Below, piece by piece: positions 6,925 through 26,282 of a stretch of 64,000 nucleotides of DNA (positions are counted from its first letter, which is position 1; every line of letters starts with the position of its first letter). A program made the translations under genes and the position numbers. The notes beneath the pieces are model-generated. The model was not told the DNA's origin. It was given only the letters and a program-made list of their open reading frames with translations, and did no database searches. Source of the DNA: Escherichia coli (GTDB taxonomy: Bacteria; Pseudomonadota; Gammaproteobacteria; Enterobacterales; Enterobacteriaceae); the NCBI RefSeq assembly GCF_013122565.1, contig NZ_CP053258.1, one strand, 5' to 3'.

Positions 6925-7824
6925 ATGAAAATCGATCTTAATCTTTTACCCATTTTTATCGCGGTAGCAGAAGAGAGTAATTTTAGTAAAGCCGCCGCAC
7001 GACTGGGCGTTACCCGTTCAGCGGTCAGTCAGGGAATAAGACGCCTTGAAGATGCATTCGGGACAATGCTTGTAATGCGGACCACGCGCTCAGTTAATTT
7101 GACGGAAGCGGGAGAACGGCTGCATAAATCGTTGTCATTACCTTTATCCGGTATTGAGGCAACGTTCGAAGAGATGGTTTCTGACCATGTGCCACGCGGA
7201 CTTCTCAGAATCGCGGTGACGTCGATAGCAGAAGAATTTCTTTCAGGTCCGCTAATCGCTTCGTTTGCAGCTGCCAATCCAGCCGTTACGCTTGATATTG
7301 TTGTAACGGATGAGGAATTCGATATCGTGGCCGCAGGTTACGATGCTGGCGTAAGGCTCGGAGAGGTCATTGAAAAAGACATGATTGCTGTGCCCATTAC
7401 CGGCAGGCAGCGTGAAATGGTCGTTGCCTCTCCCTCCTATCTCGCAGCCAACAGCACTCCTGTTCATCCGCGTGAACTTGTGAATCATAAGTGTATCGGC
7501 TGGCGTCAGTCCCCGGAGGTTGCGCCTTATCGCTGGCCATTTGAAGAAAACGGGAGAGCTTTCGACCTTGCGATTGAACCGCAGATTACGACTAATGATC
7601 TGCGTCTGATGTTGCGGCTGGCTCTTGCCGGTGGAGGAATAACAATTGCCACTCAGGAAACTTTCAGGCCGTATATTGAAAGCGGTAAGCTTGTATCGCT
7701 GCTTGATGACTTTCTTCCACAATTTCCGGGCTTCTATCTGTATTTCCCACAGCGTCGCAATATTGCACCAAAGCTCCGCGCCCTGATTGACCACGTCAAA
7801 GAATGGCGGCAGCAATTGACTTAA
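6925..7824 (+). CDS. LysR-family transcriptional regulator, divergent from the SDR gene
   Basis: N-terminal HTH (LNLLPIFIAVAEESNFSKAAARLGVTRSAVSQGIRRLE), 299 aa, LysR substrate-binding-like C-terminus; divergent 83-bp intergenic region with the SDR gene. Confidence 0.9.
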   Translation: MKIDLNLLPIFIAVAEESNFSKAAARLGVTRSAVSQGIRRLEDAFGTMLVMRTTRSVNLTEAGERLHKSLSLPLSGIEATFEEMVSDHVPRGLLRIAVTSIAEEFLSGPLIASFAAANPAVTLDIVVTDEEFDIVAAGYDAGVRLGEVIEKDMIAVPITGRQREMVVASPSYLAANSTPVHPRELVNHKCIGWRQSPEVAPYRWPFEENGRAFDLAIEPQITTNDLRLMLRLALAGGGITIATQETFRPYIESGKLVSLLDDFLPQFPGFYLYFPQRRNIAPKLRALIDHVKEWRQQLT

Positions 7825-8389
7825 ATGTCTGCACCTGCACGGCCTGATGTCAGAACAATATTTTGATGAATTGCCTACACCAGCTAGCCGCAGCACATTC
7901 TTGCATACGACATGTCTGCGGTTTACTTTTCACGCTCAAACCTTATGGTAAAGCACAATAATGATCCCCAGGGCTATATAAATGTTTTGTAATTAGCTCT
8001 TAAGACGAACTTTTCAGACTAACTTCTTTATTCATCCATAATGAAGACTGTATTAGGAAGTTCTCTAAAAACATGAATAACCACTGTCTTACAATGAATT
8101 TAGTTTACAGAACATTCTTATTGAGAAAAAACAACACTGTACACACCCAATAATATAGAAATGTAAATTTAAGTTTATTAATCTTTTGAATTATAATCAT
8201 AACTTTCTGTTAACCATTAGAATATCAATAGATTATAATCACTGAACACACATTTTTATAATTGCTATTCCCACACTCAAAATGCGCATCCCAATATCTT
8301 ATTTGACACTTTGTTGTTTGCTACTAGAGTTAATTGGGTGCTGACAAGGCACATGTTATTTACAAATTGGAAATCAGAGGAGAAATGAT

Positions 8390-8572
8390 ATGACCGAACA
8401 TCGTGGCGGTGCAGGTAATTTCGCTGAAGATCGACAAAAAGCTTCTGACGCAGGTCGTAAAGGTGGCCAACAAAGTGGTGGTAATTTTAAAAACGATCCA
8501 CAAAGAGCATCAGAAGCAGGGAAAAAAGGTGGTCAGAATAGCCATGGCGGCGGTCGTAAATCTGACTCTTAA
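8390..8572 (+). CDS. yciG: YciG/YmdF-like KGG-repeat general stress protein
   Basis: 60 aa, repeated GG..K...A.EAG.KGGQ motifs (RKGGQQSGGNF, KKGGQNSHGGGRK); preceded by 560 bp of AT-rich non-coding DNA; RBS GGAGAA. Confidence 0.8.
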   Translation: MTEHRGGAGNFAEDRQKASDAGRKGGQQSGGNFKNDPQRASEAGKKGGQNSHGGGRKSDS

Positions 8573-8645
8573 TTTTTCATCTCCCTAAATTCGTGAATAA
8601 CTGCAGCTAACTGCGAGCCTACGGGCTCGCAGGGACAACTCTGGA

Positions 8646-9152
8646 GTGATTATGCAAATTAAATCTGTTGAAGATATCTTCATCCATTTATTATCTGACA
8701 CATATAGTGCTGAGAAACAACTAACCAAGGCACTATCTAAACTTACTCGCTCCGCATATAGTGATAAATTAACCGCTGCTTTTCAGTCACATCTTGATGA
8801 GACACATGGTCAAATTGAACGCATCGACCAGGTTGTTGATTCTGAAGATGGTATTAAACTAAAAAGAATTAAGTGCGCCGCAATGGAAGGCCTTATTGAA
8901 GAGGCGAATGAGGTAATTGAAAGCACTGACAAAAATGAAATACGTGATGCTGCGTTGATTGCAGCAGCACAAAAAGTAGAACACTATGAAATTGCCAGTT
9001 ATGGCACCCTGGTAACACTTGCTGAGCAATTAGGATTTAAAAAAGCGGCTCAACTCCTGAAAGAAACTCTGGAAGAGGAAAAAGCTACTGATGTCAAATT
9101 AACAGACCTGGCATTTAATAATGTTAATAAAAAAGCTCAGGATAACTCCTGA
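8646..9152 (+). CDS. yciF: YciF-like DUF892 ferritin-like stress protein
   Basis: 168 aa; paralogous to the next gene; operon order yciG-yciF-yciE as in the known yciGFE(-katN) stress operon. Confidence 0.8.
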   Translation: MIMQIKSVEDIFIHLLSDTYSAEKQLTKALSKLTRSAYSDKLTAAFQSHLDETHGQIERIDQVVDSEDGIKLKRIKCAAMEGLIEEANEVIESTDKNEIRDAALIAAAQKVEHYEIASYGTLVTLAEQLGFKKAAQLLKETLEEEKATDVKLTDLAFNNVNKKAQDNS

Positions 9153-9186
9153 ACTATAGACTTCACTTTTTTAGGAGAAATATATT

Positions 9187-9693
9187 ATGAATAGCATTGA
9201 ACATTATCATGACTGGCTTCGTGACGCACACGCAATGGAGAAACAAGCGGAATCAATGTTGGAGTCTATGGCCAGCAGGATAGAAAACTATCCTGAGTTA
9301 CGTTCCAGAATTGAGCAGCACATTAGCGAAACAAAGAACCAGCTTTCACAGCTTGAAAGCATACTTGATCGTAATAATATTTCTCGCTCTGTCATTAAAG
9401 ACTCTATGAGTAAAATGGCCGCGTTTGGGCAATCTATTGGTGGAATTTTTCCATCTGATGAAATTGTCAAAGGTTCGATCAGTGGCTATGTTTTTGAACA
9501 ATTTGAAATTGCGTGCTACACATCTCTTCTCGCAGCAGCCAAAAATGCGGGTGATACAGCTTCAGTACCAATTATTGAAGCAATTCTTAATGAAGAAAAA
9601 CAAATGGCTGAATGGCTTCTTAACCATATTCCAGACACCACTGAGCAGTTTATGGTCAGATCTGAAATTGATGGCGCTGAAGCAAAAAAATAA
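9187..9693 (+). CDS. yciE: YciE-like DUF892 ferritin-like stress protein
   Basis: 168 aa, MNSIEHYHDWLRDAHAMEKQAESMLESMASRIENYPEL...; tight spacing to flanking genes. Confidence 0.8.
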   Translation: MNSIEHYHDWLRDAHAMEKQAESMLESMASRIENYPELRSRIEQHISETKNQLSQLESILDRNNISRSVIKDSMSKMAAFGQSIGGIFPSDEIVKGSISGYVFEQFEIACYTSLLAAAKNAGDTASVPIIEAILNEEKQMAEWLLNHIPDTTEQFMVRSEIDGAEAKK

Positions 9694-9711
9694 TTCTTTA
9701 GAGGAGGAATT

Positions 9712-10602
9712 ATGTTTAGACACGTGAAAAAACTTCAATATACAGTACGTGTAAGTGAACCAAACCCAGGCTTAGCTAATCTACTTTTAGAACAATTCGG
9801 CGGCCCACAGGGTGAGCTTGCAGCTGCATGCCGATACTTCACTCAAGGTTTAAGTGATGAAGATGCAGGTCGAAGGGATATGCTGATGGACATAGCAACA
9901 GAAGAACTAAGCCATCTCGAAATTATTGGTTCTCTTGTTGGTATGCTCAACAAAGGTGCAAAAGGAGCACTCGCTGAAGGAACTGAGAATGAAGCGGAGC
10001 TTTACCGTTCCTTAACTCAAAATGGCAATGACAGCCATATAACTTCTCTTCTCTACGGAGGAGGCCCAGCATTAACTAATTCAGCTGGAGTACCCTGGAC
10101 TGCAGCTTATGTTGATACTATTGGCGAAGTCACAGCCGATCTTCGTTCAAATATTGCAGCTGAAGCTCGTGCAAAGATCATTTACGAGCGTCTCATTAAT
10201 GTTACTGATGATCCTGGAGTGAAAGACACTCTGGCATTTTTAATGACCAGGGAAGCAGCACATATGCTTTCTTTTGAAAAAGCATTACATTCAATTCGTA
10301 ACACTTTTCCACCAGGAAAATTACCACCGATTGAGAAGTACAAAAACGTATATTACAACATGTCAGAAGGTGAAGATGTCAGAGGTAGTTGGAACAGTGA
10401 TGAAAACTTTGATTATGTTTCCGATCCAGTTCCAGCTGTTGACGGTGGGGATGGGAAGGCCTCGATAATTCTTTCGACCAAGCAAGAAGCTATGATAAAA
10501 GCTATGGCAACAAGGTTGAAATCCCATGAAGATATCAATCCTGTCACTGGCGCTGAGCTTGCTGAAGGAGAGCCACAAACAAAGGTAAATAGTAAAAACT
10601 AA
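9712..10602 (+). CDS. Manganese (non-haem) catalase, KatN-like
   Basis: 296 aa, ferritin-like di-metal fold with EELSHLEIIG and REAAH motifs typical of Mn catalases; fourth gene of a yciGFE-katN-type arrangement (known from Salmonella). Confidence 0.8.
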   Translation: MFRHVKKLQYTVRVSEPNPGLANLLLEQFGGPQGELAAACRYFTQGLSDEDAGRRDMLMDIATEELSHLEIIGSLVGMLNKGAKGALAEGTENEAELYRSLTQNGNDSHITSLLYGGGPALTNSAGVPWTAAYVDTIGEVTADLRSNIAAEARAKIIYERLINVTDDPGVKDTLAFLMTREAAHMLSFEKALHSIRNTFPPGKLPPIEKYKNVYYNMSEGEDVRGSWNSDENFDYVSDPVPAVDGGDGKASIILSTKQEAMIKAMATRLKSHEDINPVTGAELAEGEPQTKVNSKN

Positions 10603-10692
10603 TTATCTTCTGGTATTTAGCTATCTCTCATAAATTTTAATGGCCGCAGAGATATCCTAAGCTCTAGCCACTGAAAATACATTTATATTTCG

Positions 10693-10727
10693 AAGCCCGC
10701 GATATTATAAGCGGGCTTTTATTTTAA
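10693..10727 (+). terminator. Rho-independent terminator after the Mn-catalase gene
   Basis: AAGCCCGC-gatattataa-GCGGGCTT followed by TTATTTT. Confidence 0.6.
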
Positions 10728-11050
10728 CCTTCTGGTATTACAGGCCACTCAATATCCGGTGCTACTGATGGCTCAACACGATTCAACAACATCCGATATG
10801 TCTTCCATGCGGCCATTCAACATTTCGCAGAAATGCAACTAAGAGACATTACTGAATCAAAAATTTATTCAGCAATGCAGAAAATGACGAACCGGCGTCA
10901 TGAGGAAAACTGGAAACTCAGGGCAGAAGCATGCAGAAAAAAGGGAAACCTGTTCCAGAATACACGCCAAACCCAGCGTCTGTTGCAACGAAGGCTACGC
11001 ATCTTTCATTTATAAAAGCCCTGCTAAGAGCCGCAGAGCGTGAATAGAAA

Positions 11051-11718
11051 ATGCTGGATAAGGCACCAATTATTAAAGTGCCTCAACCGAAGAATAAACG
11101 GATCCGCTGGCTGGAACCTCATGAAGCACAAAGGCTGATTGATGAATGTCCGGATCCATTAAAGTCTGTTGTTGAATTTGCACTGGCAACAGGTTTAAGA
11201 CGCTCGAACATCATCAACCTTGAATGGCAACAAATAGACATGCAGCGCCGGGTGGCCTGGATAAACCCGGAAGAGAGTAAATCAAACTGCGCGATTTGCG
11301 TTGCGCTGAATGATACTGCATGTCGAGTATTGAAAAAACAAATCGGGAATCACACCGTTGGGTATTTGTGTAAAAGGAAAGCTGTACAAAACCAGACGGA
11401 ACGAAAGCGCCAACAGTCAGGAAGATGCAGTATGACGCAAACACAGCCAGGAAAACGGCGCTGAGACGAGCTGGTATTGATGATTTCAGATTTCACGACT
11501 TGAGACACACCTGGGCAAGTTGGCTGGTTCAAGCCGGAGTCCCGTTGTCAGTGTTACAGGAAATGGGAGGCTGGGAGTCTATCGAAATGGTTCGACAATA
11601 TGCTCACCTCGCACCTAATCACCTTACCGAACACGCACGGCAAATAGACTCGATCCTAAACCCATCGGTCCCAAATTTGTCCCAGTCAAAAAATAAGGAA
11701 GGTACTAACGATGTGTAA
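11051..11718 (+). pseudogene. Tyrosine-recombinase (phage integrase) remnant: catalytic C-terminal half only, with a frameshift near 11425-11464
   Basis: Two overlapping frames (11051..11464 and 11425..11718) together give an integrase catalytic domain ([19 protein letters not shown]...; [39 protein letters not shown]); N-terminal ~200 aa absent; ends 15 bp from the tRNA 3' end in convergent orientation. Confidence 0.7.
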
Positions 11719-11732
11719 CTTATTGATTTAAA

Positions 11733-11808
11733 TGGTGCCGATAAGAGGAGTCGAACCTCCGACCTTCGCATTACGAATGCGCTGCTCTACCAACTGAGCT
11801 ATATCGGC
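11733..11808 (-). tRNA. thrW: tRNA-Thr (anticodon CGU)
   Basis: Minus-strand sequence GCCGATATAGCTCAGTTGGTAGAGCAGCGCATTCGTAATGCGAAGGTCGGAGGTTCGACTCCTCTTATCGGCACCA folds as a canonical cloverleaf with CGT anticodon and CCA end. Confidence 0.95.
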
Positions 11809-15634: not shown

Positions 15635-15642
15635 TGGATATT

Positions 15643-15663
15643 GCCGGATGTGATGCATCCGGC
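15643..15663. terminator. Hairpin between convergent phoE and crl (likely bidirectional terminator)
   Basis: GCCGGATG-tgatg-CATCCGGC inverted repeat immediately after the phoE stop. Confidence 0.45.
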
Positions 15664-15672
15664 ACATTTCAC

Positions 15673-26250: not shown

Positions 26251-26282
26251 AGGTCGGATGCCGCGTGGCATCCGACCTTTTG
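26251..26282. terminator. Rho-independent terminator / REP-like hairpin between the HicB-like gene and yafL
   Basis: AGGTCGGATGCC-gcgt-GGCATCCGACCT followed by TTTT. Confidence 0.6.

Follow-up and report, generated by a model that had tools for sequence, protein, structure and literature searches.

Within the 64-kb window, that is, the whole stretch of Escherichia coli DNA analysed here (64,000 nucleotides), four genes lie on the plus strand behind a putative promoter, TTGACA-16-TAGAGT (8303–8330, +), which a consensus scan found with 10 of 12 matches. Cistron 1 (8390–8572, +) encodes a 60-aa KGG-repeat/con-10 general stress protein (Pfam PF10685 KGG, E = 5e-16), a YciG paralog named z1924 in EDL933; it is 91% identical to K-12 YciG over 43 aa, and its label is also backed by the RefSeq annotation of a 98.7%-identical locus. 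Cistrons 2 (8652–9152, +; z1923) and 3 (9187–9693, +; z1922) encode DUF892 ferritin-like proteins (Pfam PF05974, E = 3e-54 and 4e-50) that are paralogs of YciF and YciE, respectively, with 78% identity between the cistron 2 product and K-12 YciF. Cistron 4 (9712–10602, +; z1921) encodes the manganese catalase KatN (Pfam PF05067, E = 4e-86), an identity also given in published work (PMC5363993). The operon closes with an intrinsic terminator at 10693–10726 (+), identified from sequence and fold as AAGCCCGC-10 nt loop-GCGGGCUU followed by UUAUUUUAA; it has an 8–9-bp GC stem and a UUAUUUU tail (fold −16 kcal/mol, z = −3.6), and our consensus scan missed it because its loop exceeds 8 nt.

With a KGG-repeat gene, two DUF892 genes and a Mn catalase gene on one strand, all recognised by Pfam, the locus belongs to the yciGFE(katN) family, and its gene order matches both Salmonella trpA-yciGFE-katN and EHEC z1924–z1921. 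On sequence grounds it is an AT-rich accessory paralog cassette corresponding to EHEC z1924–z1921 and not the K-12 yciGFE operon: the K-12 operon has no katN and stands beside trpA, while the cassette in the window forms an AT-rich island close to thrW and proA, with 38.5% G+C in a window of mostly about 50% G+C. The first-pass annotation had assigned the hairpin described below to the yciG–yciF spacer; this placement between the stop of the KGG-repeat gene and the Shine–Dalgarno sequence (SD) of the DUF892 gene is correct, but the genes themselves are the katN-linked paralogs. The cassette is 98.7% identical to a locus in E. coli wlxctx60, flanked there by a LysR regulator on one side and phage remnants by thrW/proA on the other, and 94% identical to the O157:H7 copy, which lies in a prophage remnant near ompT. 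Among 5,426 complete E. coli genomes, about 380 have the cassette (about 382 when matches of at least 80% identity are counted), and the others give only matches of 60–80% identity through the core yciGFE operon. In EHEC, the operon is controlled by RpoS, OxyR and H-NS (PMC5363993; PMC2907692), and its KatN, exported by the type VI secretion system, counters host reactive oxygen species (PMC5363993).

Several minor observations concern the surroundings of the cassette. The AT-rich segment (8001–10700) lies beside a tRNA-Thr(CGU) gene at 11733–11808 (−). In wlxctx60, a tail-fibre-assembly fragment comes after the cassette, together with a degraded integrase beside proA, and the prophage remnant near ompT that holds the O157:H7 copy carries IS1203; given these different sites in wlxctx60-type and O157:H7 genomes, the cassette has apparently moved as a unit. 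Past the cassette, a weak Rfam match to IS009 in the phage-remnant region (10764–10819, −; 24.8 bits, E = 0.005, against a gathering score of 117) is probably due to chance. Some yciGFE loci came from records labelled as plasmids (L084, CP101356.1; L087, CP125156.1; H81–H83). These are evidently chromosomal, being 'plasmids' of 4.8–5.4 Mb or, in one case, carrying trpBA-yciGFE-katN, and their labels are thus no evidence for plasmid-borne yciGFE.

The spacer between cistrons 1 and 2 contains a perfect hairpin at 8611–8632 (+), CTGCGAGCC-UACG-GGCTCGCAG, with nine base pairs, seven of them G-C. Its 5′ arm (CUGCGAGCC, 8611–8619, +) and 3′ arm (GGCUCGCAG, 8624–8632, +) are supported by sequence, fold and alignment, and they enclose a C-G-closed tetraloop of the UNCG type, C(UACG)G, at 8620–8623 (+), which is read from the sequence and varies among relatives. 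The gap between the KGG-repeat stop and the hairpin is 38 nt, and the GGAG SD (8643–8646, +) of the DUF892 ORF (ATG at 8652) follows 10 nt after it; by sequence and fold this SD lies outside the pairing. The fold energy is −20.0 kcal/mol, compared with −8.2 ± 2.1 for dinucleotide shuffles (z = −5.5), none of 200 of which equalled it. When 260–820 nt of mRNA context was folded, all nine pairs had probabilities of at least 0.97. The first-pass description of a stable hairpin with no U-tract after it was therefore exact: the tail reads GGGACAAC, with no U in 8 nt on a direct count and 0 to 1 U by the terminator criterion.

A terminator scan of the window left this site unflagged. The stem has the form expected of an intrinsic terminator (9 bp with 7 G-C and a 4-nt loop, for a definition of 5–14 GC-rich bp and a loop of 3–8 nt), but the window copy falls short of the U-tract of about five or more U in 8 nt. 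An internal yciF promoter in the spacer was ruled out, since a consensus scan of both the window and K-12 spacers found no promoter-like site. Perfect 9-bp inverted repeats are not rare: about 1.4 are expected by chance per 64 kb, or about 0.19 with at least 7 G+C, and 14% of shuffles contained a perfect 9-bp hairpin with at least 7 G+C. The case against chance therefore rests on the comparative and experimental data below. Just 5′ of and into the stem (8600–8618), ACTGCAG-CTA-ACTGCGAG resembles a partial direct duplication of the 5′ arm; ACTGCAG is unconserved (ACTGAAG in O157, ACTGCTG in wlxctx60), so the duplication is probably fortuitous.

Within E. coli, the hairpin is unchanged in O157:H7 and wlxctx60 despite differences in neighbouring spacer bases. 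A 36-nt probe recovered it in all 381 matching complete genomes, with a median of one and a maximum of two copies per genome and always on the chromosome; on the basis of these probe-matching genomes, a dispersed repeat of the REP/BIME kind was rejected. A search allowing up to three mismatches gave a single match in the 64-kb window, a covariance model found no further copy in 320 kb, and an Rfam scan of 7800–11200 at E ≤ 10 gave no match at the hairpin (8573–8651). Two perfect hairpins of REP-type appearance, with GCCGGATG-like or TCGGATGC-like arms, occur elsewhere in the window (15642–15664 and 26252–26277) and are unrelated in sequence to the one between cistrons 1 and 2.

To place the hairpin among relatives, spacers were collected by a scan anchored on proteins, which the hairpin itself cannot bias, using one genome per species, and more were added from records of a plasmid collection; a search for homologous proteins gave only near-identical E. 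coli proteins and added little diversity. Comparison with the K-12 yciG–yciF spacer, suggested in the first-pass annotation, revealed a homologous hairpin, CTGCGGGCC-GTAT-GGCTCGCAG (in RNA, CTGCGGGCC-GUAU-GGCUCGCAG). Eight of its nine stem pairs are the same as in the window and the ninth changes from A-U to G·U, and the distance to the SD is likewise 10 nt, while the loop (GUAU instead of UACG) and the tail (UGAUUUCA instead of GGGACAAC) differ. Homologous hairpins were found in 13 of 15 enterobacterial lineages with a yciG–yciF spacer shorter than 110 nt, namely K-12, Salmonella, K. pneumoniae, C. freundii, C. werkmanii, E. cloacae, E. hormaechei, an Enterobacter MAG, Enterobacter sp. Bisph1, Leclercia, Lelliottia, Pseudocitrobacter and the accessory E. 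coli cassette. In the two exceptions (L010 and L013), unrelated hairpins occupy that place, and the structured 3′ element after yciG seems, from these sequences, to have been replaced and not lost where the homologous hairpin is absent. Unrelated strong hairpins after yciG, some with a U tract, were seen in Enterobacter sp. R1, Phytobacter, Pseudescherichia, Superficieibacter and Mixta (L010 1420–1470, L013 1440–1470, L051 1410–1450, L025 1430–1470 and L059 1235–1275). With the covariance model, no Erwiniaceae and no non-enterobacterial yciF loci could be added to the family; there, yciG is absent or is 150–690 nt distant from yciF, and the hairpins or terminators present are unrelated. The idea that the hairpin is inherited with members of the yciG gene family was also rejected, since no homolog of it follows K-12 ymdF.

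We then examined how the stem varies in an alignment of 16 sequences comprising 144 stem cells. Paired cells made up 99.3% of the total, compared with 28–41% when the partner was slid, and none of 500 shuffles matched the observed pairing or covariation score. Three pairs are invariant and the other six change in a minority of lineages, with nearly all changes keeping standard pairing. Compensatory changes occur at three pairs (five cells): U-A to C-G, C-G to U-A, and U-A to G·U with both sides changed. RNAalifold independently gave the same helix and left the SD unpaired in the consensus. All 15 one-sided stem changes produce G·U or U·G pairs on the sense strand and C·A mismatches on the other. 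Within E. coli, the Ec-U11 lineage has C to U at pair 8, giving U·G. The covariance model likewise scored the sense strand above the antisense strand in both the window (35.6 versus 26.9 bits) and K-12 (32.5 versus 16.3 bits). Because the wobble cells pair on the sense strand only, the element acts at the level of the mRNA, and the pattern of covariation identifies it as a sense-mRNA structure under purifying selection. An antisense-strand terminator was rejected, since the minus strand has no U tract and the G·U changes are incompatible with pairing on that strand.

The loop and spacing are far more variable than the stem. Loops in the family include UACG, GUAU, GAAA, UGAC, CGCG, UUCG, GCAA, UUCU and CGUC and range from 3 to 7 nt; C(UACG)G recurs in the Enterobacter MAG, C(UUCG)G is found in Pseudocitrobacter and GNRA loops in Lelliottia and Bisph1, so that loop type is unconserved overall. 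The distance from stem to SD ranges from 10 to 21 nt among relatives.

The first-pass annotation proposed an RNA processing or stability element and named the lack of transcript ends or processing sites at this position as what would speak against it. The Term-seq data of Adams et al. 2021 for MG1655 (PMC7815308, Supplementary file 1) list a strong 3′ end at 1315788 (−), within ...ATCTGCGGGCCGTATGGCTCGCAGTG[A]TTTCACTGGA, in the M63-glucose sheet and in neither LB listing (OD 0.4 and 2.0); its distance of 68 nt from the yciG stop puts it in the class 'orphan'. On this strand of that sheet, the read count is 86,472 here, compared with 24,586 at the yciE/ompW operon end and 57,930 at trp t (PMC7815308). 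After the register of the table had been checked against the sgrS, trp t and tRNA-Asp rows, the end mapped onto the K-12 locus (L003 3789) 3 nt past the homologous stem. In this operon, which is 70% identical to the cassette, and in one of the three growth conditions, about 3.5 transcripts end at the hairpin for each one that reaches its end at the operon terminator. A transcript end thus does lie at the hairpin in the K-12 homolog, and together with the conserved sense-strand stem it supports, by homology, a role in RNA processing or stability in the window. The listing in M63 glucose only may reflect condition-dependent expression or processing of yciGFE.

A 3′ end of this kind is compatible alike with termination, endonuclease cleavage and exonuclease stalling, and RNA polymerase release, RNase E and exonuclease stalling are all candidates for its making; the cleavage preference of RNase E fits the K-12 end GUGA|UUU. 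An RNase III site, which calls for a near-continuous duplex of about 20 bp or more, was rejected, as the stem has 9–10 bp and the outer pairs of an 88-nt fold are weak and unconserved. We infer by homology with K-12 that a 3′ end of the same type also forms in the window paralog, with the predicted steady-state end of a yciG-only RNA at 8633–8636 (+). Array signals in wild-type EHEC (Z1924 11.1, Z1923 8.9 and Z1922 9.9; PMC2907692) agree with a higher level of the first cistron, which is weak evidence because probe sets differ and signals are not strictly comparable. In the literature searched, nothing specific linked yciG with Term-seq, ProQ or RNases, the gene is unmentioned in the TERMITe and PNPase half-life supplements, and the hairpin is not discussed, the K-12 end being merely tabulated as 'orphan'. 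The kind of element is known, and at the yciG–yciF locus it is undescribed.

The closest known counterparts are the stable stem-loops described by Dar and Sorek 2018 (PMC6061677), who found that many E. coli transcripts end precisely just past stem-loops that carry no U-tract and that guard the RNA from PNPase and RNase II. The hairpin in the window is such a GC-rich stem-loop without a U-rich tail and is stable enough for this class, its K-12 homolog has a precise 3′ end directly past the stem, and the role proposed here by analogy would be the same block to PNPase and RNase II. As the anatomy in the window is exactly that of these stems, we read the hairpin as an exonuclease barrier that would yield a stable yciG-only RNA. 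The difference is that the Dar and Sorek stems mostly lie at gene or operon ends after Rho-dependent termination, whereas the window hairpin is intercistronic and, standing 20 nt before a translated ORF, is unlikely to follow Rho loading. Intercistronic hairpins that stabilise upstream mRNA and set differential expression within an operon include the malE–malF REP of E. coli and the pufBA–pufLMX structure of Rhodobacter capsulatus. Like these, the window hairpin follows a promoter-proximal cistron whose product would be needed in excess, and the upstream mRNA is expected to outlive the downstream part. Unlike the malE–malF REP, it occupies a single locus per genome and differs in sequence from the GCCGGATG-type hairpins elsewhere in the window, and it is smaller than the puf structure.

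Taken with the mapped end and the covariation, this comparison makes it probable that the hairpin acts in cis within the sense mRNA, setting and protecting a 3′ end directly behind the first cistron of a four-gene stress-induced operon. Transcripts would lose their downstream part through an endonucleolytic cut, through decay from the 3′ side or through occasional termination at the hairpin, and 3′-to-5′ exonucleases would then shorten them as far as the foot of the 9-bp UNCG-capped stem, where they would stall. The resulting short yciG-only RNA would build up and outlast the full-length message, so that more of the small hydrophilin would be made than of the ferritin-like proteins and the catalase, whose synthesis would need full-length transcripts ending at 10693–10726. 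The hairpin would in this way raise the ratio of yciG to yciFE-katN expression.

The main competing account is a leaky intrinsic (Rho-independent) terminator or attenuator, at which polymerase would stop in a fraction of rounds and so lower transcription of yciF, yciE and katN. The family stem of 9–11 bp, the loop size and the energy are typical of canonical terminators, the K-12 end lies directly past the stem, and five to six orthologs, about half, have 5 to 7 U in the first 8 nt past the stem (Salmonella UAUUUUG, K. pneumoniae UUAUUUUC, Leclercia AAUUUUUA, C. werkmanii UUAUUUUU and C. freundii UAUUUCUC), the Salmonella copy clearing a terminator-like scan. With so many U-rich tails, the ancestral or main role could be termination and not protection, and the window hairpin is perhaps a residual leaky terminator. 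However, the 8 nt past the stem hold no U in the window copy and only two in the O157 copy, and the window, O157, K-12 and several Enterobacter and Lelliottia copies fail terminator criteria. In addition, the K-12 end is at +3 from the stem, whereas intrinsic termination typically falls at +7 to +9, and the operon's real terminator is the one at 10693–10726. The most stable stems are found exactly where the U tract is absent; the window lineage, which no longer has the tract, holds the most stable stem of the family (−20 to −21 kcal/mol). Seen as a whole, the family resembles a terminator or stabiliser between cistrons that can do without its termination component. For the window copy we regard the terminator account as unlikely, though worth keeping in view, and we infer from the missing U tract that its 3′ end would arise from exonuclease blocking rather than termination.

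The same stem might instead serve the downstream RNA, protecting the 5′ end of yciF-yciE-katN message from 5′-end-dependent RNase E or tuning access to the SD. Stem-loops at 5′ termini do stabilise mRNA, as in ompA, the gap between stem and SD is 10 nt in both the window and K-12, and AU-rich sequence 5′ of the stem is a possible RNase E target. The sole mapped end is nevertheless a 3′ end past the stem, with no 5′ end before it, and both the unconserved stem-to-SD distance and the unpaired SD of the consensus speak against a translational role, which leaves this account rather doubtful. The stem sequence, as aligned, is conserved far beyond what an exonuclease barrier needs, in both paralogous operons and in at least eight genera, and the window copy, its U tract lost, has gained the most stable loop. 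This leaves slight room for an element recognised specifically by an RNA-binding factor or RNase of the stress phase, or for a factor-assisted terminator independent of a U tract, adjusting stoichiometry to conditions. If true, that reading could explain why the K-12 end appears in M63 glucose and in neither LB condition, and the stoichiometry of the hydrophilin to the ferritin-like proteins and catalase would be actively tuned. At the DNA level, a perfect 9-bp inverted repeat with a 4-bp spacer could be a cruciform or the operator of a dimeric regulator, and the operon is regulated in relatives by H-NS, McbR/YncC and OxyR. We consider this very improbable, because each of the 15 one-sided substitutions destroys the symmetry of the DNA but leaves a G·U pair in the sense RNA, the loop varies freely in length and sequence, and the site lies within the transcription unit about 300 bp past the promoter region. 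A functionless chance repeat, for which the frequency of such hairpins in random and shuffled sequence is the only argument, is scarcely credible: the stem is kept across genera and in two paralogous operons while its flanks diverge, and the Term-seq end and covariation have already effectively refuted it.

A barrier that protects the yciG-only RNA would be an ordinary device, since stem-loop 3′ ends are a well-known bacterial route to more expression of the first gene in an operon. Here the operon encodes RpoS-dependent stress proteins, and uncoupling of the hydrophilin from the ferritin-like proteins and catalase would explain unequal expression within it. The hairpin would also give a function to an 'orphan' K-12 Term-seq 3′ end. 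Without introducing a new principle, it has value for the annotation of yciGFE(katN) operons and is a clean, small example of sense-strand-specific G·U evolution, the stem having been kept in 13 lineages by compensatory changes and by wobble pairs that form in the sense RNA only.
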